Source of the DNA: a virus
Virus record (IMG/VR): IMGVR_UViG_3300036768_000279
Coordinates: 64,001 to 128,000 of that record
Strand: one strand, 5' to 3'
DNA length: 64,000 nt
The notes beneath the pieces are model-generated. The model did not search any database and was not told the origin of the DNA. It saw only the letters and a program-made list of their open reading frames with translations. How positions within the stretch are numbered: position 1 is the stretch's first letter; each line of letters starts with the position of its first letter. The position numbers were made by a program, and so were the translations under genes. Below are positions 1,539-63,379 of this stretch, piece after piece.

Positions 1539-1947
1539 CAAGGAAGTAAGACTTGAAATCTTGCCTAGCCGTTATCCTGTTAGGTCGAGAACTCAGTCTA
1601 AATCGCTAGGGCAATACAATCTAGGACGTACTATTCGAGCGATCTATGGTATGCATGCCTTGCTTCTAGAAGAATTTCCTATTCCAGATGAGCGTCTGTT
1701 TCTTGACTTCTACATGCCACACCACAAACTTGCGTTTGAGTTTCAGGGCGACCAACACGACACATTCAACAAGTTCTTCCATGGCGACAAGAGCGGCTTT
1801 GAGCGTTCTCAAGCACGCGACCAAAGAAAGAAAGCTTGGTGCGTTCTGAACGAGATTATGCTGGTTGAGGTTCGCGGTACGCTATCGACCGACCAACTCA
1901 AAGCTTTAATTCAATCACAAAGAGCGGATCATGAAGAACACGATTGA
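1513..1947 (+). CDS. Vsr/DUF559-like PD-(D/E)XK endonuclease
   Basis: LDFYMPHHKLAFEFQGDQH...RDQRKKAWC pattern. Confidence 0.7.
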   Translation: MMKFKTLNNKEVRLEILPSRYPVRSRTQSKSLGQYNLGRTIRAIYGMHALLLEEFPIPDERLFLDFYMPHHKLAFEFQGDQHDTFNKFFHGDKSGFERSQARDQRKKAWCVLNEIMLVEVRGTLSTDQLKALIQSQRADHEEHD

Positions 1948-2151
1948 AAAATTCTGGCAGAAGGTCGAGCAATGTGTAAGGTGATGTATGGCGAGTCTAA
2001 TCCATCATCTAAACTGACCAAGACAAAGATGCGGTATATGCGATGGCTAAGACATAAAGGATGGACTCTCGCTGCACTGGTTCAAAAATACGGAGTGTCT
2101 ATTGCTACCGTTCATAGAATTGTGCATTATGTTACCTGGAGAGAAGTATAA
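1931..2151 (+). pseudogene. internally deleted HNH homing endonuclease
   Basis: MKNTIEKFWQKV N-terminus, then in another frame GESNPSSKLT...LVQKYGVSIATVHRIVHYVTW (HTH tail); HNH core absent; TAATG overlap with dnaB. Confidence 0.8.
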
Positions 2152-3647
2152 TGTCCAATATTGCAGCCGAGAAGGTATTTTTGGCGGGCGTCATTGCGAA
2201 CCCGACCAAGTTGTTTGACTATCTCGACTATCTAGATGAGAATGACTTTCAGCACGCGGCCACAAAGATGACATTTGAGGCTGTGCGTTCCTTGATTCTA
2301 AACAAGGAAGCGACAAGCCTAACCAAAGCCAAGCTAGTTGCGGAAGCCAGGGCTCTTGGTCACCAGAATTACTTGTCGGCTACCAAGGACGGTAAGTGGA
2401 TTGATGAATTGTACGAAGAAAAGGTTGAGGAGCAAGAACTCACCGAACTCTTCTTGGAGATCAAGCGTCAAACACTGAAAGAGAATTACAAGCGAGCCTT
2501 TGAGGAAACTAGCAATTATCTGACCACTACGTCGGATCCGCTATCTGTTATGATTGGTAGGGTTGAAGACTCTATCATCAGTCAAGTCAATTCACTTGAT
2601 CGTGGCGAGAATGCTCCAGTGCTTCTGACAAAGGGCATCTTCGAGTTCATCGATGATCTGGCAAACGACCCCGGTAATTTAGGTATTGACCTTGGTTATC
2701 CAGTATGGCAGGATCGTATTGGTCAGTTCCGAAATGGTTCCGTAACTTTGGTGGTTGCAACCGCCAAGGCTGGCAAGTCTCAGTTTGCGTTGCGTGCTGC
2801 TCTGAATACCGCACGCAAAGGACTGCCGGTCATATTGTGCGACAGCGAACTTAACAAGAATGACCAGCAAATTCGTTTGGTGGCTATGATGGCCCGCGTG
2901 CCATTTCAGTACATCGAAACTGGTTTCTGGAAGATGACACCAGAGCAGTTGAAGACTCATGGCGTCACTGATGAGCAGCAGATTTCACACATCATGGAGT
3001 GTGGTCGTCGCCTTCGTGATCCAGAGCTACGTCAGCGTGTTCTGGCACTACCTATTACGTACCAATCCATTTCTGGCATGGACGTGCCAGCAGTCATTCC
3101 GCATCTACGTCGTTGGATTCTCAAAGACGTAAAGCCGGATCGTACTACCAAGAACGCACAGTGCCTGGTTGTATATGACTACATTAAGCTCGCTACCATT
3201 ACAGACCTTAAGGCCAATCGCAACATTGCTGAATGGCAGATGCATGGTATCAATGTAGCATTGCTACACGATACCATGAAGCGATACAATATTCCCTGTC
3301 TAGCCTTCGGTCAGACAAATAATGAGGTCGATGAGGGCATTCAGTGCGTTGCCGGTGGTAAGCGTATCAGCGAAAACGTCACGTCAGTCAGTTACTTGAA
3401 GAAAAAGACAGACGATGAAAGAGCGTTTGATGGGAATGGTTCTCACCTTGTACGTGTATTTGCTACCCGTTATGGTGCGGGCACTCCGATTGGTCACATT
3501 AATTTCGATGCTGATCTAAGTTGCGGCGATTTCAAGGAAATCGGACTAAGCACGGTCAACTTCAACGAAGAGCGTCAGAAGCGTCTAGACGAATACAAGA
3601 AGGGCCGCGATGCAAAGAGAAAGAATGATGACGACGAGGATGACTGA
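2151..3647 (+). CDS. dnaB: DnaB-like replicative helicase
   Basis: N-terminal AEKVFLAGVI, Walker A ATAKAGKS, VVYDYIKL, ATRYG. Confidence 0.9.
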   Translation: MSNIAAEKVFLAGVIANPTKLFDYLDYLDENDFQHAATKMTFEAVRSLILNKEATSLTKAKLVAEARALGHQNYLSATKDGKWIDELYEEKVEEQELTELFLEIKRQTLKENYKRAFEETSNYLTTTSDPLSVMIGRVEDSIISQVNSLDRGENAPVLLTKGIFEFIDDLANDPGNLGIDLGYPVWQDRIGQFRNGSVTLVVATAKAGKSQFALRAALNTARKGLPVILCDSELNKNDQQIRLVAMMARVPFQYIETGFWKMTPEQLKTHGVTDEQQISHIMECGRRLRDPELRQRVLALPITYQSISGMDVPAVIPHLRRWILKDVKPDRTTKNAQCLVVYDYIKLATITDLKANRNIAEWQMHGINVALLHDTMKRYNIPCLAFGQTNNEVDEGIQCVAGGKRISENVTSVSYLKKKTDDERAFDGNGSHLVRVFATRYGAGTPIGHINFDADLSCGDFKEIGLSTVNFNEERQKRLDEYKKGRDAKRKNDDDEDD

Positions 3648-4686
3648 AACAGAGAAGAAGGCGTTGCGGAACCACGCGAACCGCAACATTACCTACTTAC
3701 TCGACAAGCTCGCCGTCAGCTATACTGATCGCGGGAATGGACTCATTCAATCTTGCTGCAAGTGTCAACAGCACGGTGGAAATCGCGACAACCCAACTGC
3801 CTTTAGTTGGCGTCCCGATCTAGGCAAGTGGGTTTGCTGGACACACCATTGTGAGGAGTTGCGTGGCAATGACATCTTTGGGCTTGTTAGTAGTATTCTA
3901 GGAACTAACTTTGCAGCGTCGGCTAAATGGATCCATGATCGTTTGGCAGAGAAAAGCGTTGACGTTACACAAGAGGCGGCACCGCCCGAGAATTTACATC
4001 GTGGCACAGCACTACATACCCACGAACCACTCAAAGAAGATAACCTGCGTTTCCTGCAAATGGACCCAGCGTATCTCATTCAGCGTGGATTTAGCAAGGA
4101 AGTTCTACGCGACTACAACGCAGGACTGTGGCAGCGTCCTGGGACATTCATGAATGATCGTGTCGTATTCCCTATTCGCGACCATGACGGATTCTTGGTT
4201 GGCTATACGGGACGCACCATTCATTCAGAACAATACTTCTTGGAAAAGGGCATTGAGTATCGCAAGTGGATTCATGGCCGTCACTACAATCTATGGCCAA
4301 AGCGTGGCGAACTACTTATTAGTTCCTTGCTCTTCAACTTGAATAGAGCCAAGCGGTATATGGGTCATCAGAAGAAGATGATTGTTGTAGAAGGTCCGCT
4401 GGACGGCATGAAACTAGAAATGGCTGGAATACACAATTGGGTGGCAACGCTAGGAACCACTTTTTGTGCCAATCACCGCACCCTTTTGGTCAAGTATGGC
4501 GTAACTGATTTGTACGTCGCATATGACGATGATGAGAACGAGGCTGGCGAGAAGGGCCTCATGCGACTCAAGCGTGTCGTCGGCGACATTTTCAATGTTC
4601 ACAAGGTCGATCTCCTCAACGCACACGATTGCGGCGACCTGACAGTAGAACAACTTCAACTCATTTTCAAGGGGATCGGATGCTGA
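3640..4686 (+). CDS. dnaG: DNA primase (Zn-finger + TOPRIM)
   Basis: CxxH...CxxxxC Zn site, RVVFPIRD..G..VGYTGR, VEGPLD, YDDD; start placed at ATG 3640. Confidence 0.9.
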   Translation: MTETEKKALRNHANRNITYLLDKLAVSYTDRGNGLIQSCCKCQQHGGNRDNPTAFSWRPDLGKWVCWTHHCEELRGNDIFGLVSSILGTNFAASAKWIHDRLAEKSVDVTQEAAPPENLHRGTALHTHEPLKEDNLRFLQMDPAYLIQRGFSKEVLRDYNAGLWQRPGTFMNDRVVFPIRDHDGFLVGYTGRTIHSEQYFLEKGIEYRKWIHGRHYNLWPKRGELLISSLLFNLNRAKRYMGHQKKMIVVEGPLDGMKLEMAGIHNWVATLGTTFCANHRTLLVKYGVTDLYVAYDDDENEAGEKGLMRLKRVVGDIFNVHKVDLLNAHDCGDLTVEQLQLIFKGIGC

Positions 4687-14816: not shown

Positions 14817-15820
14817 ATCAGATGTACTATGAACCTCAAATGAAGTCGATTGCGGAGCGAGTGAATCGCAAGCCGCGTCTGGTGCAATGCATTCAGATGT
14901 TGAACGAAGAAGAATTTGCACCACTCGTCTTGCGTTCCATTTACGATCAGGTTGATAGGATTCTCGTGATTGAGGGAGCGGTGCAAAATAATCCGAGATC
15001 TACTCCAGACGGACATTCGATCGATAAGACACGTGAAGTCCTAGCGGACTTCAAGGCGAATCATGACCACAAGAAGAAGATTGTAGTTATTTCCATCAAC
15101 AAGCATTGGAAAAACTTGGAGGAAATGAAGCAGACGTTCTTGGACATGTCTATGCCGGGCGACTGGATATTGATCAATGATGCGGACGAAATTTATCGCC
15201 CGGAAGATATTGAACGTCTTCGCAGGGCTATTGAATTGAATCCTACGGCCTGTGAATTTGTGCCGAACTTCCTGCATTTCTATCGTGATTTCAGTCACGT
15301 TGCCGTGCCCGGACCTGAATGGCAGCCACAGCATCAACGTGTTTTCAAATATGTTCGTGGCATGAAGTACAATAGTCATCCAGTTGTGACAGATCCGGCT
15401 GGACACTGTACTTATTTCTCGCCGCACTATCAGCATCGTAGAGTCATGCTGAACGACTTCTTCATCTATCACTATGGCTACGCTCGTAGTAACATGGATG
15501 AAATCATGAAAGCTAAACAAGAATACTATGAGAAGGAATTGGCTACACACGGTGGAGCCAACAAGAAGTTCGACCAGAAGGTTAAGGATTGGTTTGCTGG
15601 CACAGAGCCGGTTCTGTATTTTGACGGTCAACATCCTGCGGTTATGGATAAGCAAAGCGTTAATGTTCAGGTTCCGCGAAAGCCACATGAGCGTACGTGG
15701 CGTGATGATCCCTTCTACAGCAAGGTACTTGCTGGTGAGGAATATGGCAATATTTGGTTGTGTATGACTCGTCAGTCTGTGCCACACATGCATCATTATC
15801 ACAACGGAATGAAGGTCTAA
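14813..15820 (+). CDS. GT2-like (GT-A) glycosyltransferase
   Basis: NEEEF, SIDKT, WILINDADE (DxD), IYHYGY. Confidence 0.8.
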   Translation: MNQMYYEPQMKSIAERVNRKPRLVQCIQMLNEEEFAPLVLRSIYDQVDRILVIEGAVQNNPRSTPDGHSIDKTREVLADFKANHDHKKKIVVISINKHWKNLEEMKQTFLDMSMPGDWILINDADEIYRPEDIERLRRAIELNPTACEFVPNFLHFYRDFSHVAVPGPEWQPQHQRVFKYVRGMKYNSHPVVTDPAGHCTYFSPHYQHRRVMLNDFFIYHYGYARSNMDEIMKAKQEYYEKELATHGGANKKFDQKVKDWFAGTEPVLYFDGQHPAVMDKQSVNVQVPRKPHERTWRDDPFYSKVLAGEEYGNIWLCMTRQSVPHMHHYHNGMKV

Positions 15821-15918
15821 TCATGCTATTACAATGCACGAAAACGACCCAGAGCATAGTCCGTTCAAGACGCTGACTTCAATTCTCTCGACTCCAAAAC
15901 ACGCAGACAGTATTTTGA

Positions 15919-16101
15919 GTGATGAAATACGTAGCAGATAAAGACTGGTCTGACGACTATGAAGAGCGAGAGGCTAGAGATAACGCCCGTATTCGTCGTC
16001 AGCAGAAGATCGACGCGAAGAAAATAATTCGTGACAAGAAGCGTTCTGGCACCTACTACGAACTACCTCAGTGGCAAAGAGAGAAGCTAGAAGATGACTA
16101 A
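15919..16101 (+). CDS. small charged hypothetical protein
   Basis: ORF overlaps the next gene. Confidence 0.45.
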   Translation: MMKYVADKDWSDDYEEREARDNARIRRQQKIDAKKIIRDKKRSGTYYELPQWQREKLEDD

Positions 16102-19447: not shown

Positions 19448-20106
19448 AGCTGATCACATTCTCTCTTTGGGGCGATAGCCCCAAATATTGCATCGGTGCT
19501 CTCAAGAATGCCGAGCTTGCTAAGACCATCTATCCAGGCTGGACATGTCGCTTCTATCTGGGGACATCTGTCCCCAGAGAGATCGTTCATAAGCTGGCCG
19601 CTATGGACAACACGCATATTGTGTGTATGAATGTAGCCGGGGATTGGCGTGGCATGTTCTGGCGTTTTGAAGCCGCTAGTGATCCCGACTGCGAAGTCAT
19701 GATTAGCCGCGATTGCGACTCGCGGCTAGGGCTACGCGAAAAGGCTGCTGTCGATGAATGGATGGTTAGTGACAAAGGCTTCCATACCATCCATGATCAC
19801 TTCCATCATAACGTACCGATACTAGGAGGATTATGGGGCAAGAAGCGTGACTGCTTTCCAGAATTTAGCATATTTCTTGATGCGTGGCACCAGGAAGATA
19901 GATGGCAAACCGACCAAGACTTCCTTACCCAGGTTGTTTGGCCGCGAGTAGCCAATCAAACTATGAATCATTCTGAATTCCACACGCACATATGGCCCGC
20001 CAGACCAATTCCATTGCCACGTAGTGGTCGTGAGTTTATTGGTGCTACATATAATGAACATGATATCATTGATGTAGAGCAGCAGAGATTATTGTATGGT
20101 AGGTAA
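19444..20106 (+). CDS. putative GT-A-like glycosyltransferase
   Basis: FSLWG..PKY..GA..N, MFWRF, ISRDCDSR (DxD), DQDFL...VWP; lies inside the GT cluster. Confidence 0.55.
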   Translation: MKLITFSLWGDSPKYCIGALKNAELAKTIYPGWTCRFYLGTSVPREIVHKLAAMDNTHIVCMNVAGDWRGMFWRFEAASDPDCEVMISRDCDSRLGLREKAAVDEWMVSDKGFHTIHDHFHHNVPILGGLWGKKRDCFPEFSIFLDAWHQEDRWQTDQDFLTQVVWPRVANQTMNHSEFHTHIWPARPIPLPRSGREFIGATYNEHDIIDVEQQRLLYGR

Positions 20107-20457
20107 GAGACGCTATGTTTGTGATGATCGTATGACGCTGGAGTCATGTTATTGGGCTGGCTTTATTGCATCGGATGGCCACATCAATCCTGTGCCTCAT
20201 GGACTTGATCTAATTCGCCAATTGAATGCCGCATTAGACTGAATGGCGTGCATAGTTGGCTTGAAGCACTTGAAAAGAGATTCAACATTACGACCGCCAA
20301 GACTAAAACGTTACAGCCCCCAGCACTAAGTGGCAATCGTTTATGGGCCTTTGTTATTGGCTTTTTGGATGGCGATGGCTAAAGGAACTCTTGGATCGTG
20401 AGTTTCCTCAACAAGATTGATGTTCCCAAGCTTCAACGAAAGTGGTGTAAGGTATGA
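20096..20457 (+). pseudogene. multiply deleted LAGLIDADG homing endonuclease
   Basis: fragments YWAGFIASDG, LEKRFNIT..KTKTL, AFVIGFLDGDG and LNKIDVPKLQRKW are colinear with the intact paralog 22547-23185; ~360 vs ~640 bp. Confidence 0.9.
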
Positions 20458-21521
20458 TTCGTAAGGGATATTCATTTGACGACGTGTTGTTGGTGCCTCG
20501 GTATAACGACATTCCTAGCCGAAAGGACGTAGACACGTCCATCAAGTTTGGTGAACTGCATCTTAGTATTCCAGTCCTTTCGGCGAATATGGATACCATT
20601 ACAGGATCCAACATGGCTCGCGAGATTGCCAATCTTGGTGGTCTTGGCGTTCTTCATAGATTCTGTTCGATTGAAGACAACATCAAGATGTATTGTGAGT
20701 CTATTGATAGACACTACACCGACCCAGTTGCACAATATGGCATTGTGCCCCAATCGTATGAACGTCATACCGTCGTATCGCTTGGAGTGAATGAAGGTCT
20801 TGAACGTTGCGAAGCACTGTATCAAGTTGGTGCTCGCTACTTCTGTGTAGATGTGGCACACGGTCACACAAAAGCTATTGGCAAGTTTGTTAAGCTACTC
20901 AAGAAGCAATACAGCGACATCTTTGTTATCGGCGGCAACGTTGCGACGCATGCCGCCGCTGATTATCTGGCGTCGTGTGGTGCTGATGCAATCAAAGTAG
21001 GTATCGGTCCTGGTAGCGTGTGTACCACACGCATTAAAACTGGTTGCGGCGTGCCGCAACTCACAGCTATCATGGATTGTGCTAAAGTTGACCGCATCAT
21101 CATTGCTGATGGCGGCATCAAGACGCCGGGTGATGCCGTCAAGGCGTTGGCTGCTGGTGCTCACGTTATTATGCTTGGTGGTATGTTAGCTGGATGTGAC
21201 GAAACCCCCGGTGAAGTACAAGATGACCACTATCCCTTTGCGGGCAAGCACAAGCTATTTCGAGGAATGGCCTCGAAAGAGGCTCAAGAAGACTTCATGG
21301 GTTCTATGGCAGGCTGGAAAGCCGCCGAAGGTGTACAGATCAAAGTACGAGCCAAGGGGCCAGTAAAGAACGTGATTGCGGATTTGATGGGCGGCATTCG
21401 ATCAGGCATGACGTATTGTGGTTCACGCAACATTGAAGCCTTGCATCGCAATGCCGAATTCATTGAAGTCACGTCAAATTGTGTGAAGGAAAATACGCCG
21501 CACGGCGAAGGAAGACTATGA
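20454..21521 (+). CDS. IMP dehydrogenase / GMP reductase family protein (no CBS domain)
   Basis: [50 protein letters not shown]. Confidence 0.9.
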
Positions 21522-21658
21522 ACAACATTGTTGATAAATCGGCTCTAGATTTCTATAAAGACAAAAGTCGTCCTGATGGCATTTCGTCTCGTTGCAAAAT
21601 TTGTGACAAACAAAAGCAGGAACAATTACAGAGACTAGGCAGATTGTTACAGCCATGA
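21518..21658 (+). pseudogene. 46-codon remnant of an HNH/EndoVII-type endonuclease
   Basis: DFYKDKSRPDGISSRCKIC motif; ATGA overlaps at both ends; catalytic domain absent. Confidence 0.65.
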
Positions 21659-22557
21659 AAATTCTTGTTTCGTACCGAGCGATTCCTCAGTCGCCCGGTT
21701 GGGCGACGGGTGATTGTGTAGTGCGTGCCTTTCAGGCATTGGGGCACGATGTCACTCCGTACGGTAATTACTATCAGACGCAGAAACGTCTGGAGGATTG
21801 TAACGTACTCGCAGATGACTGGGATCTATTCTTATTTCTTGAATGTGGCGACGGCGATCCAGTCTACACAGAGCTAGCCAACATACGAGCACGTAAACGT
21901 GCGAGTTGGTTCTTTGACGCAGCCCTGTATCCTCAGCACTGGCTAGCCATCCTTCGCCTATTTGAGTTTGATGTCAACTTCATTGCCAATAGCACAATGC
22001 TATATGACAATCTCAATACAGAGTACCTGCCATATGCAGCAGATCCAGCACTACACTATAGATCCTATAAAGAAAAAACACGCGATTTTCTACTCATCGG
22101 ATCTGATAGGCCAGAAAGACGCAGACTTTACGATCTCATGAAAAGAGCTTGTCCAGATGCTAGAATAGATTTTATTCATGGTGTCTTTCGTGAAGCATAC
22201 ATTGATGCGTTAGCCTCTAGTCATTATGTGATAAATGATGTTGCTGGCGGTGGGGCGGGTCTTTTACCAATGAGATGTACGGAAACCATGGCGGCAGGTA
22301 GTGTATTACTGAGTGTGCAAGACCCGGCACTGCCGACCATTGGTACTAACTTAGAGCACTATATTAATTTTCGAGACGAGAATCATCTTTTTGGCACAGA
22401 GGTTAATGGCACTAATCACTTTCATCATATGTTTGCTTGTGGAGAAAGCTTCTCTAAGCGAATTGCATTGACTGGACAACAACATTGTCTAGAACATCAT
22501 ACATATCGTAATAGATGTCAAGCCATTCTTCAAAGACTTTTTCCATATGAGACGTAG
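21655..22557 (+). CDS. CgeB-like (GT-B) glycosyltransferase
   Basis: YLPYAADP, RCTETMAAGS, GQQHCLEHHTYRNR. Confidence 0.75.
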   Translation: MKILVSYRAIPQSPGWATGDCVVRAFQALGHDVTPYGNYYQTQKRLEDCNVLADDWDLFLFLECGDGDPVYTELANIRARKRASWFFDAALYPQHWLAILRLFEFDVNFIANSTMLYDNLNTEYLPYAADPALHYRSYKEKTRDFLLIGSDRPERRRLYDLMKRACPDARIDFIHGVFREAYIDALASSHYVINDVAGGGAGLLPMRCTETMAAGSVLLSVQDPALPTIGTNLEHYINFRDENHLFGTEVNGTNHFHHMFACGESFSKRIALTGQQHCLEHHTYRNRCQAILQRLFPYET

Positions 22558-23185: not shown

Positions 23186-23276
23186 CGATGGACAAAACGT
23201 GGTTTTGCGTGATCATACTTATGGCCGTCGTTGTGCTACCATTCTAGAAAAGCTGTTTCCACATGAAAGAGTCTGA
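23169..23276 (+). pseudogene. displaced duplicate 3' end of the CgeB-like GT gene
   Basis: translates as GQNVVLRDHTYGRRCATILEKLFPHE, matching GQQHCLEHHTYRNRCQAILQRLFPYE at the end of 21655-22557. Confidence 0.85.
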
Positions 23277-49714: not shown

Positions 49715-50649
49715 ACATTATGTCCAGTGAACAATTCGTTCGTCCAATTGCCCTTAGACTTGCTCCGCAAAGCGTCTCCACCGAAGTGCAACAGATTCAT
49801 CATAGCGTCCGCTGATGCAGCGATACGGCCCTCAATTGTCTTGATGTCTTCAATTTCATTGCAAGAGTTTTCGAGTGCCTGCTTCTTTGCTTCCGGCACT
49901 TTCATATCAAGATCGCTTTCAACGTGAATCATTAGATGGTCTACGTAGCGGGCACTGGCTCGATTAACGCCCGTCATGTAGAATGCGTCCTTTGGACGCA
50001 GATATCCACTAGCGAATGAGGTTGAAGTATGCCATCCGATGTTGCGGAATATGCATGCAGCCAATACGAGCGACGCATTGAGAGGCATCTCTGACTCTTT
50101 GGCTTGAGCGGTCATAACCTTAGCTAATCGCAGCGAACCCGCGACATGAACTAGTAATCCGCCTCTATATGCCAGAGGTCCACTGAGTCCGTAAGGACTT
50201 GTCTTTAGGGCGTTCAACAGATCGAGACGATGAATGGCGTTTCCGACAACGTTTCGATAGTGTTCATCGTCCATCATTTCAAAGGCTTCCTCGACTGTTG
50301 CAGCACATGCAGCTAGTGCCGCATCACTCATTCCCTTGACGTAATCATGTACGTTGAGGGGCGTAGGAACCGCTGTGATGTTACTGGCGTCTACCGAGAA
50401 CTCTACCTCGCCCTTATACAGCTTGAGTTCCAGGGCCATACGATAGTATTGGCCTTCAACAAGAGTGCTGTCATAGTTCCAAACAACACCTTCGATTTCG
50501 CCAGTAATGTCGCGAAGCGTTACTCTAGCAAATCGATTGCCAGTAGCAGTGACCATTGCTTCATTCTGAGTCACCTTCTGCACCAAGAAGATTTGGCGAT
50601 ATCTACCAACTTTCAAATCCTTGATGGGAACGTACGTCTCAGTATTCAT
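49711..50649 (-). CDS. YhaM/CBF1-like OB-fold + HD-domain protein with degenerate HD motif
   Basis: LRDITGEIEG.VW OB fold; AYRGGLLVH; IFRNIG in place of LHDIG; start placed at 50649. Confidence 0.7.
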   Translation of the reverse strand: MNTETYVPIKDLKVGRYRQIFLVQKVTQNEAMVTATGNRFARVTLRDITGEIEGVVWNYDSTLVEGQYYRMALELKLYKGEVEFSVDASNITAVPTPLNVHDYVKGMSDAALAACAATVEEAFEMMDDEHYRNVVGNAIHRLDLLNALKTSPYGLSGPLAYRGGLLVHVAGSLRLAKVMTAQAKESEMPLNASLVLAACIFRNIGWHTSTSFASGYLRPKDAFYMTGVNRASARYVDHLMIHVESDLDMKVPEAKKQALENSCNEIEDIKTIEGRIAASADAMMNLLHFGGDALRSKSKGNWTNELFTGHNV

Positions 50650-50851
50650 ATCGCGTCCGCTTACCGCCCTTTGTGCGGTCGTCTTCCGCCTTACAGGTTG
50701 GACACTTGGCGACCTTTCGGGTGATGATGTAAACTTCATCTGGCTGTTCTTTTTCGTTGCCTGGATTGAGTGTTACCTTGAGTTTGTCACCGTAATAACA
50801 GCCTCGGCAATTGCTACACTCAATCAGCGTGATGGTCTTGGGCGTTTTCAT
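50639..50851 (-). CDS. small Zn-ribbon protein
   Basis: CSNC...CPTC; overlaps both neighbours. Confidence 0.55.
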   Translation of the reverse strand: MKTPKTITLIECSNCRGCYYGDKLKVTLNPGNEKEQPDEVYIITRKVAKCPTCKAEDDRTKGGKRTRYEY

Positions 50852-53013: not shown

Positions 53014-53184
53014 GGTGTGCCACCGTCGTATGACTCGTGAAAATGAATTCGTTCTGCCTCGTCAATTGGTCGTGGAGTATACATACGCTCTCGATACTCC
53101 TCATCCCTTTATGATCCACTGTTTTAGGAGGTTGTGGAAGGCATCCATGTTAACTGTGGACCAAAATCTATCTTGCAAATTCAA
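53010..53184 (-). pseudogene. collapsed HNH endonuclease remnant
   Basis: [10 protein letters not shown], then HGCLPQPPKTVDHK in another frame; ends in an ATGA overlap. Confidence 0.55.
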
Positions 53185-53749
53185 ATGTCACTTGATCCGT
53201 TACTACAGGCAATCCACCACTTCCTATCATAGCATTCCACAACAATTTATCATGATTGTCTTGCGGCATCCATCCTGCTGTGCATTTGAATAGCTCACGA
53301 GTGTGAGCCATGCCTACTGTCAGTATGTCAGTTGTGTTAGGCTGTCCGATCTTGCGGACGGTATCTTTCGAGCGAGAAGACTTGTGTCTCCATGAGAAGG
53401 GCTGACCAGAGGTACGCACCATTGTAGCTTGCGGATGCTCAGAAAGCAAGCTTGAAATCGTTGAAAGGTGGTTGGGGAGCCACACATCGTCGTCATCGAT
53501 GTACGCGATCCATGGATTTGCACCCATGGCAATACCTCTATTGCGAGCCCATGCTCCAAAGTCTTCGTGGCACGGACCATTGGCACCGACAACAGTGACT
53601 CGCGGATCTTCCACTAGATACTCTAGACCGCCAATACCATCACACATCACCCACAACTGCCAATCGGCGTAGTCTTGGTGTAGAACTGACTCAATCGCAT
53701 GTAGCAGGCTGAGACGCCCTACGGACGGCAGGATGATGTCGAATTTCAT
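53168..53749 (-). CDS. GT2 glycosyltransferase
   Basis: [32 protein letters not shown]; start placed at 53749. Confidence 0.88.
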
Positions 53750-54014
53750 GACCAGAAATGTACGTATTATCTTGTGTAAATTCGTGACCTCGTTTACAGT
53801 GCGTTTTCTTTGTGGCAGAAGCGGCTTGTGTATTGCCACGCATCAGATTAGTGCGATATGTTACTGGCTCTAAGTGCGTCGGATTAACACACGCCCTATT
53901 TCTACAGACGTGATCAAGCTGAGTGCGTTTGGGATTTTCCCAACAAGTTGTGTGTAAGCATACCTATGAGCACGCCATCGTTTATAGTTACATTTAATTG
54001 ACACGGTACTTCAT
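53750..54014 (-). pseudogene. frameshifted/deleted HNH homing endonuclease
   Basis: [15 protein letters not shown], frameshift, [24 protein letters not shown]...[14 protein letters not shown]. Confidence 0.9.
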
Positions 54015-54499
54015 CTGAGAGGTCGCCAAATGAATTTCGAGACAGGTATCTTATATGACATCTTAGAGCCAAAACCTTGCCACGGAATTACTTTGCAAGT
54101 ATCTATGATATCTTGTAACGCCGCCGTTTTAAGCATTGTGTATTGCGGAATCTTTTCATTAGATCCATTGATCATTAGGATGGTTGCACCATCCCGTACA
54201 TACGACTTCACTTGAGAGACTTTCAGGTGAAAGAACTTATCCAAAAGAGGCTTGGAGAACTTGACTTCAATCTTACCATATCCCTCAACATTGAAGTCGG
54301 GATCCATTGACACTTCTTTGTCTGTCAATAGTTCGCCAGTTTGGCCACAGCCGGTATCAGTGTATGCCGGTCTCTTGCCGCTAATGCGTTCAATGAGATC
54401 AAGCCACAAAATGAATAGGGCTCGCTCCTCTTGAGTGCGAGACTTGATGTCTTTTTTGAACTGATCTTCTGAGCGATTGTCGTAACGATAGCTGCTCAT
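54011..54499 (-). CDS. putative PD-(D/E)XK nuclease
   Basis: DPDF...IEVK motif; start placed at 54499. Confidence 0.55.
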   Translation of the reverse strand: MSSYRYDNRSEDQFKKDIKSRTQEERALFILWLDLIERISGKRPAYTDTGCGQTGELLTDKEVSMDPDFNVEGYGKIEVKFSKPLLDKFFHLKVSQVKSYVRDGATILMINGSNEKIPQYTMLKTAALQDIIDTCKVIPWQGFGSKMSYKIPVSKFIWRPLR

Positions 54500-54916
54500 T
54501 GCACAATACTCCGTAACCAGTTCTTGCACTCTCTTGCAGTGCCAGTGCCTTTGGCTCTATTACAGAACTTGCAATACGGTACGCAATTCTTTATTGTATA
54601 ACCAATATCATTGTTCAGTCTGTCGATTCCATTTATCACACTCGGCCGCAGTCAATCGCCAACTAAGTCCACGCTTTTTGGCTTGAAGCTTGTACTGTTG
54701 CCATATTCTGTTACGGCAAGATTGACCGACGCCAAGTTTTCTAGTACAGCCACAACTTGTCGTTCTTCCCTGCGTCAAATGTCCAGTTTGGATCCATGAT
54801 TCTCTATCACAGTCACAGACACATTGGCGAAGTATCTGACCGTTGCGACGTTTCACTTTGCCGGTGACGATCAATTTGCCAAAACGTTTATGACTTAGGT
54901 CGAGAAAAGAACTCAT
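54496..54916 (-). pseudogene. frameshifted, internally deleted HNH-type endonuclease
   Basis: LDLSHKRFGKL..CVCDC..TTSCGC..YKLQAKKRGL, then in a shifted frame NGIDRLNNDIGYTIKNCVP.CKFCNRAKG. Confidence 0.88.
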
Positions 54917-55512
54917 TGAGTTAGACGCTTTATTACGTCTTCCTCAGAAAGCACCTTGCGGAATTTATGCAACACGCGGAAGCAAGCGATCGAATCAAAC
55001 AGAGCGGTGTGGAACTTGTTCTTGCCAACATCTGCCATGTCGATATTGAATGCCTTGACCGCCTGCGTCAAGGACGCCCCAGACTTCACGTTGTCATTGC
55101 CAGTAAACAAACGCACAACCGGCAAGGAGTCAATAAAGCGATACGTGAAGTTGGCCTCAAATTGCTGCGGCTCAATGCCGTAGATCTGATACGCCATCAT
55201 GCGTACGTCATGTTGAGTGTTGTGGCCACCCATAATCTGGGCACCATGATCATGCCACAAGTCCATGAACTTGTCCCGAATTTCTTCGGTAGTAATACCC
55301 TCAGAGAACGCCTGAGAGGGCGTGATTCCATGGATCTCTATAGCCTGGGGCGTAAACTTGTAATCATTGATCGATGGCAGTTTGTGCAGAGCTTCAAACT
55401 GAGAAATGATCTCGCCAGTTTCAAGATCGCCAACAAGGGCACCTATGGAAAATACCGAGTGGACCTTAGGATCAAGGCCACCCGTCTCTGTATCCATAAT
55501 CATAATTCGCAT
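54913..55512 (-). CDS. DEDDh 3'-5' exonuclease (DnaQ-like)
   Basis: MDTETGGLD, IHGIT, GHNTQHD, HTALFD. Confidence 0.9.
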   Translation of the reverse strand: MRIMIMDTETGGLDPKVHSVFSIGALVGDLETGEIISQFEALHKLPSINDYKFTPQAIEIHGITPSQAFSEGITTEEIRDKFMDLWHDHGAQIMGGHNTQHDVRMMAYQIYGIEPQQFEANFTYRFIDSLPVVRLFTGNDNVKSGASLTQAVKAFNIDMADVGKNKFHTALFDSIACFRVLHKFRKVLSEEDVIKRLTQ

Positions 55513-55760
55513 TATTTGTTTTTCTTTCTATAATAGAGGTCTAAGCATTTTTGATTATGGCAAACAACATGATCTAGCTGTAGACCACATTCAATAGCAC
55601 CGTACATGAATTTGTAAATCCATCTATGTGCCTGTACCCACTTGCCATTCGAATGATATCTACCATAGCCATCACGTTTGCCAGCAAGCCAACTCCAGCA
55701 CCCTCCATTAGGTTCAATACGAACCTTACTCATGAAGCGTGCTGGAATTTCTTTATTCAT
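55512..55760 (-). pseudogene. truncated HNH endonuclease
   Basis: RFMSKV..GCWSW..DGYG..AHRWIY..G.I..GLQLDHVVCHNQKC; the NPxHL...N half is missing. Confidence 0.8.
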
Positions 55761-57159: not shown

Positions 57160-57182
57160 TAGGAGTCTGTGTCAAACTCCTA
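57160..57182 (-). promoter_or_regulatory. hairpin with TTGACA at its apex (terminator and/or promoter)
   Basis: TAGGAGTTTG-ACA-CAGACTCCTA followed by GAATTTT; weak -10 (CACAAG). Confidence 0.5.
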
Positions 57183-57581
57183 AGGTGTACGCAACAGCTT
57201 GGCCGGTGTATGAGCACTTGGCGTGATTAGTTGCAAATCGGCAGAAAAGCACGGTTGTCCAAACACTTGGGCCATTTGGTATTCAATCGTGGCCCCCTTT
57301 GATTCTTGCCAATCGGGCAGAAACACTACCGCGTCACAGATTGCTTGCTGTCTAATTGCATGTCTCATGCAAATAGCCCAGCCTTCTTTGAACTCCTGCG
57401 GATCGTCGAGTCTCAGGTATGCTGGCCACGATGTACGACGTGGATTTTCTACATCAAATCCCATCGCATGGAGGCGATCTTCCATTTCGGCAAACGCCTC
57501 CTTGTTGCCATTCGGCTTGCCTGAGATACCTCCACTGATATACACGCGGAGACGCTTCTTGATGTCATTTAGACTAGTCAA
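57180..57581 (-). CDS. DUF4406 / nucleoside 2-deoxyribosyltransferase-like protein
   Basis: VYISGGISG, NP, CDAVVFLPDWQESKGATIE. Confidence 0.85.
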   Translation of the reverse strand: MTSLNDIKKRLRVYISGGISGKPNGNKEAFAEMEDRLHAMGFDVENPRRTSWPAYLRLDDPQEFKEGWAICMRHAIRQQAICDAVVFLPDWQESKGATIEYQMAQVFGQPCFSADLQLITPSAHTPAKLLRTP

Positions 57582-58344
57582 TGTATTTCACCTTTTCTTG
57601 CAAAATAGATGGGTTGTTGGCAACTGCCACGAGCACGTCATTGATAGTTCCATCACAAATTGAATAGCCCTGTTTGGCGTACTTCAACATGCGACGCACT
57701 GTCGAAAGTGCGTGGTGTACGTTGTTGACACGCAATTGCTTTCGACCAATGTCATACAGAGTGTATTGCCCCACCATAAGCGTATTGCCATCGGTGAGGA
57801 ATTGACAATTGGTGTAATCAAACCACTCAAGAACCTCTTCCGGGCTACCGAAATAGAACTTGATTAGTTGTAGCTTGAATGGCTTTGATTGAGGAGCATC
57901 AACGGTTGGCGTGAGCGTGACTTCAAGCGTCACATTCAATTCATTCTCACTAATCACCTTGGTAGTTCTCCATGGTGTATTGAGAGTGTCTTTGAATGAT
58001 TGAAGTTGTGCTTCGCTGGCAAAGAATAGATCGAAATCGCTTTCGTCGTTGTTGCCATCGAAGAGACGACGAATCGAGCCACCAGCGAGCCACGGTCCAA
58101 CAACAAAATTCAATGGCTGAATTCCATTGACCACTTCCATGAAGCGGGCTGGATATCCGGTGGTTGGATTGTAGTGCTGACGAGCTACAAACTCAGTCAG
58201 TTTGAGGCAATACTGTTTGCCCGCCAATCTCGTCTGCAATTCTGAATTCGAATCCATAAGCTCTCTCCAGTTCTTTACCTCATTATCGTTTGTCGTGTAG
58301 CCAATACGCAAGGGCTTGTTATCAGGATTCTTGCGTTCACTCAT
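57574..58344 (-). CDS. poly(A)-polymerase/CCA-like nucleotidyltransferase head domain protein
   Basis: AGGSIR, DFDLFF, FDYTNCQ, RMLKYAKQGY. Confidence 0.7.
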   Translation of the reverse strand: MSERKNPDNKPLRIGYTTNDNEVKNWRELMDSNSELQTRLAGKQYCLKLTEFVARQHYNPTTGYPARFMEVVNGIQPLNFVVGPWLAGGSIRRLFDGNNDESDFDLFFASEAQLQSFKDTLNTPWRTTKVISENELNVTLEVTLTPTVDAPQSKPFKLQLIKFYFGSPEEVLEWFDYTNCQFLTDGNTLMVGQYTLYDIGRKQLRVNNVHHALSTVRRMLKYAKQGYSICDGTINDVLVAVANNPSILQEKVKYID

Positions 58345-59414
58345 TCGCTTGCCAAAACCTTTCCCTTTTCGTCTTTGACCTTTTCAAGGACGATTTTCCA
58401 GATCTTGTCATTTATGCTCTTCTTGTCCAAAAGACCGAATACGATACCAGTGAGTTCGTTTGGCGTATTAGCCTGAATCCACAACGCCTGCGTCTTGCGG
58501 TCCCCCTCGGGGATGCGAGCGGCGATACTCTCGGCTTGGATACGAAGCTTATCATGCATTCCCTGTACGTAGGCACGAATGTCATCAAAATCCTGCTGAA
58601 TTCCTTGCGGCAATTCCTTGACGGTGACGCCGTATTCATTGCCACGAATTAGCTCAATGATACCCTTGGGGCTCATGTGATTGAGCAGTCTGTGGACACG
58701 GAGATACGCAGGCGACTTCACCTTGACTCGCTTACCGCTCGCAAAACGGGCGACGTAGCCCTCTTCGTTCGACGCAAACGGAATTTCGCCGCGTAGGTCG
58801 ATGTTGTAACGACGAGGACGACGGAATCCGCACTTATCCGCGATCTGATCGACACGACGAGGATGCCATTCTTCGCCATTATGCTCGAAGATTGCGAGCA
58901 GACACAAGAAGGTCTCGCCTTTATAATCTACGACGATACGGTTTTCGGGATAGATAATCTCGAAGATCGGCGTGCAACCCTGAGGCAAGTGCTCCAGAGT
59001 GTACTGCGAATTGAGGATGGCGGTACCCGCTACGGCTTGATCCGACTCCATGCTACCCGGCGTGGCCAAACGCCAACGACCATCTAGCATGTAGCCAATG
59101 CCACACGAGCCATCGAGCTTTTCGTAGATCTCGACTTCCTCATGCCACGGCAGATTCTCCACCATGCTTTCCGAGACTTCTCCCAGGTTGAAAAACTTAG
59201 GAAAAGGTCGTGCAACGACCGTGCCATCGTCTCGGAAAATGATACCACGAGCCTGACGGTTCACGTCGTTCCAGAGACCCTGGATGTGAGTGTCCTGGGT
59301 GTACTTGAAAATCGTCAGGTCGCCCATCCGCGACGCGGATACGCGACCTTCCTCAACTTCCTTGAGGAGCTTTTCGTAGAGGATGTAGTCTTTCATTTCC
59401 AGTATCCGTCTCAT
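58341..59414 (-). CDS. T4 Rnl1-like RNA ligase
   Basis: ARGIIF, ARPFPKFFN, EKLDGS, FEII, NRIVVDY, EGYV, RVKVKS..Y. Confidence 0.92.
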   Translation of the reverse strand: MRRILEMKDYILYEKLLKEVEEGRVSASRMGDLTIFKYTQDTHIQGLWNDVNRQARGIIFRDDGTVVARPFPKFFNLGEVSESMVENLPWHEEVEIYEKLDGSCGIGYMLDGRWRLATPGSMESDQAVAGTAILNSQYTLEHLPQGCTPIFEIIYPENRIVVDYKGETFLCLLAIFEHNGEEWHPRRVDQIADKCGFRRPRRYNIDLRGEIPFASNEEGYVARFASGKRVKVKSPAYLRVHRLLNHMSPKGIIELIRGNEYGVTVKELPQGIQQDFDDIRAYVQGMHDKLRIQAESIAARIPEGDRKTQALWIQANTPNELTGIVFGLLDKKSINDKIWKIVLEKVKDEKGKVLASE

Positions 59415-60646
59415 GCGAGAGCCCTGGCTCTAGCCTGTTCCATCTTGGCTCTGATCTTCTCGCCATCGCGAAGCGACGCGAATTGGTCACCACGAACAGT
59501 ACGGAACTTATCTGCCGCGTCAAGCACGGCTTGACGCTGCGGGTACGGCTTGTCATGGAACAGCGGGCCACGTCCTTGAGCATCCGCCTGAGCGGCCAAC
59601 GTCACTCGTTCGATGAGCGTATTTCCGTGAGCGGCTCCGAGTCTATCGAGGAGCCGCACCTTCGTCATCGGCTTCAATTCATTGAAACGGTGAACGTTCA
59701 AGTGCTCGCGAGACGCGGCAACGCCAACGTCACGCATAGCATTCGGAACCTTCAAACGCTCACAGAATTGATGCACAAGAGGCACGCCAAGTGCTTCGTG
59801 ATTGTAGTGGTGCGGAAGATTGTCGTCATCCGTCACGGCCTTGCCTAGATCATGTACGAGTGCCGCAAACATCGTAGCGTCATCCGCTCCGAGTTCGCGT
59901 GCTCGGTCCACAACCAGAAGCGTATGAACGAACGCATCGCCTTCCGGGTGGTGCTGCTCGGACTGAACGCGACCTTGCAGTGCCGCAAGCTCTGGAAACA
60001 CCACATCTAGACAATTGAACACGTCCAGTGATTCGAAGAACTTGCTTGGCCGTTGCGAACGCAACGCCTTCATGAGTTCCGTGAATACCCTCTCTTGCGA
60101 AAGAGAGTTAAGCTCGCCACGCAAGAATTGGCACATATGAACAAGCTCCCACGTAGGCTCGAAGCCGCATTGTGCGGCGAACCTTGCGGCACGCAACACA
60201 CGCAGCGGGTCCTCTAGAAAGTGTTCGCTCACAGGAGCCAAACACTTTTCAGAAATCGCCTTGCGGCCACCAAACGGATCGATGATTTCGTCCGTGAATG
60301 GATTCATGGCCATCGCATTGATCGTCAAATCACGACGGAACAAATCTTCATGCAGCGAAACGCCATCCGTTTCACACTCGAATCCCGTGTGTCCAGCACC
60401 GATCTTGCGTTCTTTGCGAGCAAGTGCAATTTCGATACCGTCAACGATCAAAATAGGAAACGACTTACCAACGGGCTGTTCACCTTCCGGCAGGGCAGCC
60501 AAAAGCTGTTGCATCGTCATGCCAACTACGCACAGGTCCACATCCTTGGCCTGTCTGCCCATGACTAGATCGCGTACGGCTCCGCCAACCACAAACGGCT
60601 GGCCGCCAGCCGCCTGGATGCGGCGACATAGATCAAGATGCTTCAT
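59411..60646 (-). CDS. cca: tRNA nucleotidyltransferase (CCA-adding) with HD domain
   Basis: VGGAVRD, DVD, DLFRRDLTINAMA, EDPLRVLRAARF, HHPEGD, HDLGK. Confidence 0.93.
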   Translation of the reverse strand: MKHLDLCRRIQAAGGQPFVVGGAVRDLVMGRQAKDVDLCVVGMTMQQLLAALPEGEQPVGKSFPILIVDGIEIALARKERKIGAGHTGFECETDGVSLHEDLFRRDLTINAMAMNPFTDEIIDPFGGRKAISEKCLAPVSEHFLEDPLRVLRAARFAAQCGFEPTWELVHMCQFLRGELNSLSQERVFTELMKALRSQRPSKFFESLDVFNCLDVVFPELAALQGRVQSEQHHPEGDAFVHTLLVVDRARELGADDATMFAALVHDLGKAVTDDDNLPHHYNHEALGVPLVHQFCERLKVPNAMRDVGVAASREHLNVHRFNELKPMTKVRLLDRLGAAHGNTLIERVTLAAQADAQGRGPLFHDKPYPQRQAVLDAADKFRTVRGDQFASLRDGEKIRAKMEQARARALA

Positions 60647-60659
60647 GCCCTATTCTAGC

Positions 60660-60947
60660 TTACGCGGTAGGTGTAGTCAACTTCTTTCTAATATCCATCA
60701 ACGCCTTACCAAGGAAATTACTTCCTTTGCCGTTACAGACACCCCAGAACGTATCATTCCAAGTATTGCCTTCAATCAATTCGGCGTCGCCAGTAGCTAT
60801 CAATTGGTCTCGAAGCCACGGCTCTTTGAATTTGGCGGCAAGAATGTCGGCCGAAATGCATTCTCTGACGACGGGTATGTCCTCGTATTCGACCTCGCAG
60901 GGCCAAAAGTTACTCAGGAAGCGGAATTCGCCTGACATTCTTTTCAA
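60660..60947 (-). pseudogene. internally deleted NADAR (YbiA-like) gene
   Basis: FLSNFW and LIEGNTWNDTFWG..G.NFLGKALM are present; YPSSENAF lies out of frame; the central Q-A-x-K...W segment is absent. Confidence 0.8.
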
Positions 60948-61212: not shown

Positions 61213-61219
61213 TGCCTCC

Positions 61220-61670: not shown

Positions 61671-61677
61671 GTCTACC

Positions 61678-62049
61678 TCAGTTACCTGTAGTCTGTGCCG
61701 CCTTCTTTGAGGCGATTACTTCTTGCAAAGCCTGCTCACGAGTAAGCAGACCGTTCGCATGTCGCTGACATTGTTCTCGACTCATACGGAATCGACGAGC
61801 AACACCAGTAGCGGCCTTCACTCTTTCAGAGAAATTGTCCGTCGTCAGTCCATCTTCTAAATAGACAGAATCGGGGATTTCAGGCTTACGAGGCTTTAGC
61901 TTGGCGACTCCGCCGCTAGCCAAAAACTCCTCGAATGCTTGTTCTCTGGTCAAAGTTCCAGCCTTGACTCGTGCCTTTTGTTCGTTACTGACTCTAAAGC
62001 GAAATCCGGTACGAGCATGAAAATTCTCAAGTGTTAGATCATCGGTCAT
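61678..62049 (-). CDS. hypothetical protein with two ~40-aa repeats
   Basis: LT..NF...TG..RFR.S.EQ..R...G.LTREQA..E twice; GGAGG RBS before ATG 62049. Confidence 0.7.
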   Translation of the reverse strand: MTDDLTLENFHARTGFRFRVSNEQKARVKAGTLTREQAFEEFLASGGVAKLKPRKPEIPDSVYLEDGLTTDNFSERVKAATGVARRFRMSREQCQRHANGLLTREQALQEVIASKKAAQTTGN

Positions 62050-62070
62050 GTAAGTGCCTCCGTTACGTCT

Positions 62071-62099
62071 ATTATGTCTTGTTCGGCGTCTAGTGTCTA
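62071..62099 (-). promoter_or_regulatory. sigma70-like promoter TAGACA-N17-CATAAT
   Basis: exact 17-nt spacer upstream of the RBS and ATG 62049. Confidence 0.65.
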
Positions 62100-62126
62100 C
62101 CGCTTTTTCAGGATTCGTGTTAGTGA

Positions 62127-62294
62127 CTATTGTAGGTCGTTCGCAATGTCTTGTGTCGTGTGCTGCTTGAATGGATTTGTTGGCACGTCTTCGATGGAGC
62201 GACCTTGTGTTTGTGCTAGATAGCCCATTCTGAACGGCAATGATTTGTTCTTGGGAAAATGTGCAATTCTCCACTTTAGCTCATTCGTATTCAT
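62127..62294 (-). CDS. 55-aa hypothetical protein (below the ORF-track cutoff)
   Basis: MNTNELKWRIAHFPKNK...NDLQ; ATGA-coupled to the ligase stop. Confidence 0.4.
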   Translation of the reverse strand: MNTNELKWRIAHFPKNKSLPFRMGYLAQTQGRSIEDVPTNPFKQHTTQDIANDLQ

Positions 62295-63130
62295 AGATCG
62301 GCTTTTTCACGGAAGACAATACCAACTGGGAAACGCGGTAGTCCGTCGTCCGTGCGATCGAAGAAGCGTACCGTGAGTTTCTTGCCAATGTATTTCCTGC
62401 GATTGGCGTACATTTCGCGGCGTTCTTCTATTGTGGCCTTCATGGTGCATTCAAATGTCTGATCGCCGCACTTGCACTTCCAAATAACGCCGCCCTCCAT
62501 CTTGCCTTTGCCGTCACGGGCATCGATAACGACGAATTCGTCGTCTTGGAATTCCTTGACCTTGAGAAGCTCGGAAGAACGATAGCCCCAGAGGTACCGT
62601 CCGTGACCAAGACGCAGCATGGCACCTTCGTAGCCCTCTTGCATGAATTCGCCGTAGAGCACCATGTTCTTTGGAAGCCATGATTCCAACTGCTTTTGGA
62701 CTGTAGGCATGGAATAGGGCTTACCGGCCCGCGAGGTCAACGCCACCTTATTTCCATCCCATTCAGCCAAACAGCGAACGCCATCAAGCTTAGGTTGTAC
62801 CCAGGCTGGGTAAACAACGCTCTTACGCTTATCCTCGTACTTATGAGCTAACATCGGCAGCCGCAGTTCCTCTTGAGCGGCTTCCGGCGTCTCACTGTAC
62901 TTTCTCTCGATCTTGAAACGCCAGAGCGATTCGGCTTCGGCCTTGGCTTGTACCTCGGGAGTGGTCTCGTGCGAGCGTCCTATGTTCTTGGAGACCGCCT
63001 TTTTCGAGGACGTTTGAAGCTTGCCGCCTACTTGACCGTATGCAGTGTAGATCGTGTCGCCTTGGCTCCAAACTCGCCATTGGCGAAGGTCACCATTTTT
63101 CGCCTTATGGTATAAGATGGGCAACTTCAT
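62291..63130 (-). pseudogene. lig: ATP-dependent DNA ligase with in-frame internal deletion
   Basis: WGR-like N-terminus, PMLA, QPKLDGVRC, SR.GK, then VLYGE runs directly into EGYEGAMLR; motif IIIa is absent; LLKVK and PRFP are present. Confidence 0.8.
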
Positions 63131-63257
63131 GAGACGTGTTTCCAGCTTTTGTGTCGAACGACCTTATGAATGATGTTGTAACTTAAGTTTGGTCGCCAGT
63201 ATAAGCTCTACCCTTACTAGAATCACCCTTCTTAACCTTGGACCAAACTCTTTCCAT
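63127..63257 (-). pseudogene. collapsed HNH endonuclease remnant
   Basis: MERVWSKVKKGD...KGR, and in another frame IHKVVRHKSWKHVS; start/stop overlaps at both ends. Confidence 0.75.
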
Positions 63258-63379
63258 CAATGATGCTCAGTCCCGCCCTTGCGAGTCAAGTAATCTGGGC
63301 TGATGATCTTGAAGATGCGACGCTTCGGATGCGGACGAACCTCGTCAATCGTCACTACACGCACAAGTAGATCGCTCAT
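63257..63379 (-). pseudogene. 40-codon remnant of a DRB0094-family RNA ligase
   Basis: MSDLLVRVVTIDEVRPHP (family N-terminus) fused in frame to RRIFKIISPDYLTRKGGTEHH (family C-terminus). Confidence 0.8.

Follow-up and report, generated by a model that had tools for sequence, protein, structure and literature searches.

A 64,000-nt stretch of a phage genome (the window; bases 64001-128000 of IMG/VR virus record IMGVR_UViG_3300036768_000279) contains a series of genes that have been shortened by internal deletion, among them three enzyme genes, encoding a second RNA ligase, an ATP-dependent DNA ligase and a NADAR protein, and remnants of free-standing homing endonuclease genes (HEGs). This is a clear but expected case of a phage losing unneeded genes by deletion between short repeats, and we consider it highly probable that the genome is part-way through shedding dispensable DNA by repeat-mediated deletion combined with homing-cycle degeneration. 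The first-pass annotation of this DNA had counted about twelve such genes, nine of them HEG remnants; the three enzymes and six of the HEG remnants hold up well, a seventh remnant is probable and the last two are weak. Its view that the damage is mainly deletion is borne out, with deletions dominating throughout.

The record from which the window is taken is complete, at 147,927 bp with direct terminal repeats, and the phage encodes a DnaE-type polymerase. Genes in the window lie on the plus strand up to ~45 kb and on the minus strand thereafter, tightly packed with stop/start overlaps of mostly 1-4 nt (ATGA, TAATG), and no tRNAs were found in it. Megablast of the window against an annotated phage collection returned zero matches, and so no near-identical phage; syntenic relatives, with protein identities of ~60-90%, are the genomes G001, G002, G004 and G006 and the contigs L106-L110 (L109 included), L115 and L122.

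Three enzyme genes shortened in frame

63257-63379, minus strand: RNA ligase remnant; 40 codons, 18 from the N-terminus and 22 from the C-terminus, fused in frame across a 978-bp deletion.
62291-63130, minus strand: ATP-dependent DNA ligase; in-frame loss of 78-80 codons from between motifs III and IV.
60660-60947, minus strand: NADAR (PF08719); ~53 codons lost in frame, probably as two gaps.

Five relatives (G002, L106, L107, L108 and L110) carry intact syntenic alleles of all three genes, in the order NAPRTase, RNA ligase and ATP-dependent DNA ligase, with NADAR further on beside the CCA-adding enzyme. There the proteins measure 366 (RNA ligase), 359 (DNA ligase) and 148 residues (NADAR), and the window retains 40, 279 and 95 codons, respectively, all in frame. 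The short alleles are derived, as the first-pass annotation had proposed when it described the three genes as shrunken.

The clearest junction is that of the RNA ligase. Both flanks of the remnant align to the 366-residue G002 gene, overlapping by 11-12 nt, and in G002, L106, L107 and L110 an 11-nt direct repeat with at most one mismatch is present at both breakpoints, 978 bp apart, while the window holds a single copy. A deletion between short direct repeats leaves just this pattern. The intact protein contains a PHA02142 OB fold and PF09414, and the remnant, at 40 of 366 codons, holds neither. The intact Rnl1-type ligase of the window may make this second RNA ligase redundant.

The DNA ligase junction falls in an imperfect repeat, matching at 17 of 21 positions in G002. 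The microhomology suggested earlier as a possible route to the deletions is thus seen directly in the RNA ligase and is plausible in the DNA ligase. The Pfam profile DNA_ligase_A_M, of 204 positions, matches the window protein at positions 1-81 and 170-204 only, with 82-169 missing; a complete nucleotidyltransferase domain of an ATP-dependent DNA ligase (PF01068 plus OB domain) has motifs I, III, IIIa, IV and V, and compared with four orthologues that of the window is short of 78-80 codons between III and IV. No other DNA ligase, ATP- or NAD-dependent, was found in the genome, 62291-63130 being the sole one, and the phage therefore presumably depends on the host enzyme. The NADAR loss takes in the conserved E-H-x-x-Q-x-x-K stretch when aligned to the 148-residue orthologues of G002, L107 and L110, and Pfam covers profile positions 90-162 only, versus 8-162 in G002. 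Judging by these missing motifs, the shortened enzymes have probably lost their function.

In a three-taxon rate comparison against thirteen intact neighbouring genes, the window branch of the DNA ligase evolved at 0.122, within the 0.06-0.15 of its neighbours and so without acceleration, while that of NADAR was accelerated at 0.277. Either the DNA ligase was therefore shortened recently or what remains of it is still under constraint; NADAR has been debris for longer. The earlier description of the retained segments as little decayed accordingly fits the DNA ligase and fails for NADAR.

The minus-strand remnants sit in a module of nucleic-acid repair and metabolism genes, with an SbcC-like ATPase, a DEDDh exonuclease, a dNMP kinase and SSB, as well as the intact Rnl1-type RNA ligase, a CCA-adding enzyme and NAPRTase. 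The last three form an RNA-repair/NAD module at 58341-60646 and 63384-63992 (the RNA ligase being of T4 Rnl1 type and the CCA-adding enzyme carrying an HD domain), which adjoins the collapsed NADAR, DNA ligase and second RNA ligase.

Homing endonuclease remnants and their sites in relatives

1931-2151, plus strand: R1, remnant of an HNH_3 homing endonuclease with a C-terminal helix-turn-helix (HTH); nuclease core missing.
20096-20453, plus strand: R2, LAGLIDADG homing-endonuclease remnant; three pieces in two frames (motif 1, motif 2, C-terminal end).
21518-21658, plus strand: R3, probable zinc-finger part of a phrog_1035-type HNH endonuclease; 46-codon open reading frame (ORF) with ATGA overlaps at both ends.
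26070-26315, plus strand: R4, collapsed HNH homing endonuclease; one open 81-codon frame.
53014-53167, minus strand: R5, possible HNH_3 N-terminal stub; N-terminal motif at 53152-53169 only, weak.
53750-54010, minus strand: R6, HNH_3 remnant; core kept (~residues 40-120 of a 188-residue protein) in two frames, both ends lost.
54496-54916, minus strand: R7, HNH homing endonuclease remnant; ~29-codon internal deletion removing the first catalytic stretch, plus a frameshift.
55512-55760, minus strand: R8, HNH_3 remnant; 82 open codons, residues 1-74 of the 188-residue protein, break inside the HNH motif.
63131-63256, minus strand: R9, possible HNH_3 stub between RNA ligase and DNA ligase; N-terminal motif at 63234-63251.
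22547-23185, plus strand: LAGLIDADG homing endonuclease, apparently intact; 212 residues, both motifs in one open frame.
23175-23262, plus strand: orphan second copy of the 3' end (~27 codons) of the upstream gene 21655-22557, lying downstream of the LAGLIDADG gene.

Among the nine putative HEG remnants, R1, R2, R4, R6, R7 and R8 are solid assignments, with significant matches to full-length HNH_3, HNH or LAGLIDADG proteins; R3 is probable, and R5 and R9 are proposed from a short N-terminal motif only. Most keep recognisable ends, as had been claimed: this applies to R1, R2, R4, R7 and R8, as to the three enzymes, and R6 departs from it, having kept its core and lost both ends.

The HNH_3 domain (PF13392; phrog_826) is matched significantly by R8 and R6. 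R8 is 70% identical to residues 1-74 of P0001, the 188-residue HNH_3 protein (phrog_826, E 1e-17; custom profile, 65 bits), and ends in a short tail whose stop overlaps the start of the next gene. R6 is 60% identical to P0001 residues 61-122 (E 3e-20; phrog_826, E 3e-22), scores 81 bits with the custom profile and has an additional frameshifted piece upstream; it abuts the start of a GT2 glycosyltransferase gene at 53749, a start placed from G002. We rejected a long ORF at 53168-53839 as a real gene, as it is a spurious upstream extension of that glycosyltransferase gene, and likewise a fusion of R6 in frame to the downstream gene, as the HNH piece lies in a different frame from the gene starting at 53749.

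R1 consists of a 17-codon N-terminal stub (1931-1984), a frameshift and a 59-codon C-terminal HTH ORF (1972-2151). The latter matches phrog_20467, an HNH endonuclease (profile 61-107 of 112, E 5e-6), and a database search for longer relatives of the HTH found none, though tblastn against phages matched it to the C-termini of annotated HNH endonucleases. Protein p93 of Myxococcus phage Mx9 joins an R1-type N-terminal motif, an HNH_3 core and C-terminal HTH repeats, which is the full architecture. A complete catalytic HNH motif is absent from R8 (break inside), R6 (frameshifted, without ends) and R1 (no core), and by their sequences these three are remnants rather than working HNH_3 members. Just upstream of R1, a 144-residue gene at 1513-1947 matches the DNA-binding parts of phrog_559 and phrog_9084, both PHROGs of HNH, homing or intron-encoded nucleases; it is ~80% conserved across all relatives and may therefore be a domesticated HEG domain.

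What is left in R4 of an HNH gene of 179-181 residues is the N-terminus, a segment from the middle and the C-terminal tail; the zinc region and HNH core are deleted. R7 aligns to the intact HNH of G002 (a 179-residue gene of the same family) over residues 37-130 in frame 2 and 160-204 in frame 3 (E 8e-30) and is also matched by phrog_374 and phrog_1035. The assignment of R3 comes from phrog_1035 (profile 73-102 of 271, E 1.5e-4) and a weak 38% identity over 34 residues to an intact 191-residue HNH of G004. In blastx against full-length paralogues of the same genome, R2 matches G000 49826-50701 at residues 22-46 and 69-136 (E 3e-13) and window gene 22547-23185 at residues 105-141 and 208-224. 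Its motifs lie in two short frames with segments missing, and R2 thus falls short of two motifs in one frame.

R1, R5 and R9 are linked by a six-residue N-terminal motif, which occurs three times in the six frames of the 148-kb genome, in these loci only and on the coding strand, versus 0.02 times in shuffles; the pattern was defined post hoc, after the three loci had been seen. A strict regular expression for it matched 0 of 32 full-length family members, though looser versions are present in them. With an independent family profile, R1, R5 and R9 rank 11, 114 and 16 among 1448 fragments of similar length, and all three align, weakly, to N-terminal positions of the profile (R9 to positions 8-30). 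The HNH_3 profile detects none of the three at E<=10. R5 and R9 have a 9-nt identity in common. R5 as a remnant of the Cys-rich gene found at the same site in G002, L106 and L107 was rejected, there being no similarity. The start of R9 overlaps the RNA ligase stop and a stop in another frame overlaps the DNA ligase start; in all relatives these two ligase genes abut.

A single HEG, the LAGLIDADG gene at 22547-23185, appears intact (phrog_4645, E 3e-27), which agrees with the earlier count of one within the window. Its GC content dips to 0.42, and it is absent from all relatives examined for it (G001, G002, G004 and G006). The orphan segment at 23175-23262 is 78% identical to the C-terminus of the G002 orthologue of 21655-22557 and 54% identical to the C-terminus of the window's own gene. 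We read the duplicated 3' end around 22547-23262 as an insertion footprint, the LAGLIDADG gene having entered the 3' end of 21655-22557; the orphan copy being closest to the relatives' sequence, this suggests that the HEG arrived together with a gene end of its own.

Empty, intact and degenerate alleles are found at homologous sites among the relatives. At the R4 site, G006 has an intact 181-residue HNH gene (93402-93947) between the same two orthologues, and the site is empty in G001, G002 and G004. The site of the G002 HNH gene, intact in G002, is empty in the window and holds in G006 an 81-codon collapse in which ~45 N-terminal and 36 C-terminal residues are joined in frame. G006 carries three copies of this one HNH family within 5 kb (L140; 92415-92783, 93402-93947 and 96828-97073): one intact, one without ~66 N-terminal residues and one collapsed to 81 codons. 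In all, we aligned five differently deleted copies of one HNH family.

The R8 site presents a nested decay series, with 249 bp in the window, ~125 bp in L110 and ~115 bp in L106, L107 and L115. Remnants of 115-125 bp occur in L106, L107, L108, L110 and L115 and have the first ~25 codons and a short tail in common with R8; some carry an extra 10-bp deletion, and in L110 and L115 the start is shifted into another frame by a 1-nt indel in an A-run. In G002, G004, L109 and L122 the site is empty. Given these differences in length and frame, the short forms at this site are not conserved microproteins. No HEG was found in relatives at the R1, R6, R7 and R9 sites; those of R1 (G001, G002, G004, G006), R6 (G002, G004, G006) and R9 are empty or nearly so, and that of R7 holds only a short unrelated ORF in G002 and G004.

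Relatives have also collapsed genes of their own that are not HEGs. A Cys-rich accessory gene of 115 residues in G002, L106 and L107 (L107 16505-16858) is reduced to ~42 bp in L110 (16215-16250), where what is left is the overlap at the start, 17 nt from the middle and ~25 nt at the 3' end. End-preserving collapse is thus a property of the clade, specific neither to this genome nor to selfish genes. The search for intact alleles in relatives, recommended with the first-pass annotation, thus recovered them for the three enzymes and for the HNH gene at the R4 site in G006; none was close enough to measure HEG breakpoints.

Further sites vary in content. At 57180-58344 (minus strand) the window encodes a DUF4406 protein (133 residues) and a 256-residue protein without a family match, both absent from G002, G004 and G006; the DUF4406 gene is present in L109 and L122, making this another variable accessory slot. 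The gaps at 62050-62290 and 15820-16094 gave no clear remnant assignment. The first, 240 bp on the minus strand, contains a 55-codon ORF (62127-62294) where G002 has a 309-residue SPFH/band-7 gene and a small membrane ORF, and no remnant of either was detected in it; the annotated 198-residue ORF at 61678-62274 is an over-extension of a 123-residue gene. The second contains a 35-codon ORF (15834-15941) with a short motif in common with a 111-residue G002 gene at that site and a 1-nt insertion relative to G002 before the stop, and may be another truncated accessory gene.

Reading frame, kept ends and competing explanations

Seven shortened alleles can be placed on an intact reference, and six of them are in frame; including the poorly mapped alleles gives 7 of 11. 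Against a naive expectation of one third these counts give P values of 0.007 and 0.04. We derived a codon-phase base rate from exact direct repeats at least 60 nt apart in the 131 coding sequences of the window and G002. Such repeats mostly share codon phase (60% of 8-mers, 62% of 9-mers, 65% of 10-mers, 77% of 11-mers and 94% of 12-mers), and against p=0.6 the in-frame counts show no excess, with P values of 0.16 and 0.53. At both resolved junctions, the two joined repeats are in phase and code for one and the same short peptide. The in-frame pattern can therefore be explained without the selection for translational coupling that the first-pass annotation had invoked. The kept ends are most simply attributed to the overlapping stop, start and ribosome-binding signals of neighbours, which would constrain deletions: any that ran past the end of a gene would harm the conserved gene next to it or the ribosome-binding site of that gene, and deletions within genes would be those that survive.

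These observations suggest the following course of events. Free-standing HEGs of three kinds (HNH_3, a second HNH family and LAGLIDADG) would have invaded junctions between conserved genes and would have decayed once no empty targets were left to invade, as the homing-cycle model predicts, with three accessory repair genes (second RNA ligase, DNA ligase and NADAR) hit by the same process. Most of the decay would come from short direct repeats, the sequence between them being deleted by replication slippage or by recombination over short homology. With overlapping stops and starts, only gene-interior deletions would survive, leaving both ends in place, and with short coding repeats usually sharing codon phase, many products would remain in frame without selection on the product.

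A more directed process would also accommodate the microhomology at the RNA ligase junction, the position of R9 between two collapsed ligase genes, the recombination genes nearby (SbcC-like ATPase, DEDDh exonuclease, SSB) and the ATGA/TAATG overlaps retained by many remnants: HEG, CRISPR or restriction cuts would be repaired through microhomology by phage recombinases such as RecA or the Sak-like protein, with frames and overlaps under selection to keep downstream genes translationally coupled. We think this rather unlikely, as no in-frame excess is left once the codon-phase base rate is allowed for, frameshifts are tolerated in about half of the remnants (R1, R2, R6, R7 and R9), no deletion is linked to any cut site, and slippage yields the same junctions without a break. 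Nor is the purge of selfish nucleases that had been suggested called for: what is seen is the homing cycle in its usual course of degeneration and loss (PMC1654191) rather than a dedicated mechanism, and the same collapse affects non-selfish genes here and in relatives.

We see a slim chance that either the mini-ORFs and stubs are kept as translational-coupling spacers, not as proteins, or the crippled ligase has made this lineage a 'deletor'; if so, gene collapse in packed phage operons would be a selected or lineage-specific process, not passive decay. Taken by itself, the 'deletor' idea, in which repeat-mediated deletion became more frequent after the sole DNA ligase was lost or replication or recombination changed in some other way, is very doubtful. 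It would account for ~12 collapsed genes here versus ~4 seen in G006, the sole DNA ligase is indeed crippled, raised recombination has been reported for ligase-defective T4 in classical work, and remnants are more numerous here than in relatives, with HNH_3 remnants only here in a profile scan from which G006 was left out. However, the ligase appears to have lost its segment recently, and the R8 remnant, being present in relatives too, is older; the remnant counts in relatives are not exhaustive, and the surplus may just reflect more past HEG invasions.

It is similarly improbable that any of the shortened products has a function as a small protein or a domesticated domain, the candidates including the R1 HTH (as a regulator), R4 and the 279-residue ligase. 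The frame is open, with start and stop in order, in R3, R4, R8, the RNA ligase stub, the DNA ligase and NADAR, the C-terminal ORF of R1 is a complete HTH, and the DNA ligase branch in the window is not accelerated; but no other genome has these short alleles, the only site with remnants in common (R8) holds versions of different length and frame in the relatives, and the catalytic cores are gone (ligase profile positions 82-169, the HNH motifs, the NADAR motif). An assembly artefact, in which a metagenome assembler collapsed or mis-joined reads at repeats of a phage whose genes are in reality full-length, would suit a single metagenome-assembled record whose RNA ligase junction is in no independent contig, but is scarcely credible given that repeats of 7-12 nt are far below assembler k-mer sizes, that twelve separate loci would need to be affected, that comparable collapses occur in relatives assembled from other samples, and that the genome closes with terminal repeats at 147.9 kb, near the 151.8 and 154.4 kb of relatives.

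Several points nevertheless weigh against passive, repeat-mediated decay as the account of the whole set. The alleles are known from one metagenome assembly, and a search of viral and metagenome contigs for the exact RNA ligase junction found it in no other public contig. Junction repeats were measured at only two of ~12 loci, the HEG remnants being without close enough intact alleles; R5 and R9 are weakly supported; and a DNA ligase without lineage acceleration also fits continued constraint on a shortened protein.

Relation to the homing cycle and consequences

Invasion, fixation, degeneration and loss make up the homing cycle, which is well known (Goddard and Burt model; reviewed in PMC1654191) and has been discussed for T4-like phages (PMC2988022). 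Our data resemble it in the empty, intact and degenerate states at homologous sites of related genomes, and in the loss of nuclease function after invasion followed by erosion. They differ in that the HEGs are free-standing at overlapping phage gene junctions, not passengers of introns or inteins, and in that erosion proceeds by large internal deletions that leave both ends, with several stages visible in one genome.

A second parallel is provided by the ICP1 vibriophages, in which an in-frame 228-bp deletion between degenerate repeats was found inside a phage HEG and read as changing the specificity of a still-functional T5orf172 HEG, with gene fragments present within HEG islands (PMC10055350). 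Repeat-mediated in-frame HEG deletion, small fragments beside HEGs and unstable HEG content between related phages are common to both systems, whereas in the present genome nuclease cores are removed, and ligases and NADAR are also hit.

The deletions themselves follow a familiar pattern. Deletion between short direct repeats, by slippage or short-homology recombination, is known, as is the deletional bias of prokaryotic and phage genomes. The single 11-nt copy kept at the RNA ligase junction conforms to this, as do dispensable genes that shrink rather than gather point mutations; the mechanism is not new, and what differs is that codon-phase bias as a source of in-frame products is quantified here for the clade. 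What the window shows is the known homing cycle in its degeneration phase, together with repeat-mediated deletion of the ordinary kind. The present analysis contributes several stages of decay seen at homologous sites, a junction traced to its repeat, the same process acting on a DNA ligase, an RNA ligase and NADAR, and a codon-phase account of in-frame debris.

The result is an unusually complete natural record of the death of free-standing homing endonucleases in a phage. In this phage group, many small ORFs and seemingly intergenic gaps are best annotated as remnants of genes, and the phage itself should be recorded as probably without a working DNA ligase, second RNA ligase or NADAR. More generally, because short coding repeats share codon phase, in-frame 'mini-genes' can arise in compact genomes without selection, which calls for caution when annotating small phage ORFs.

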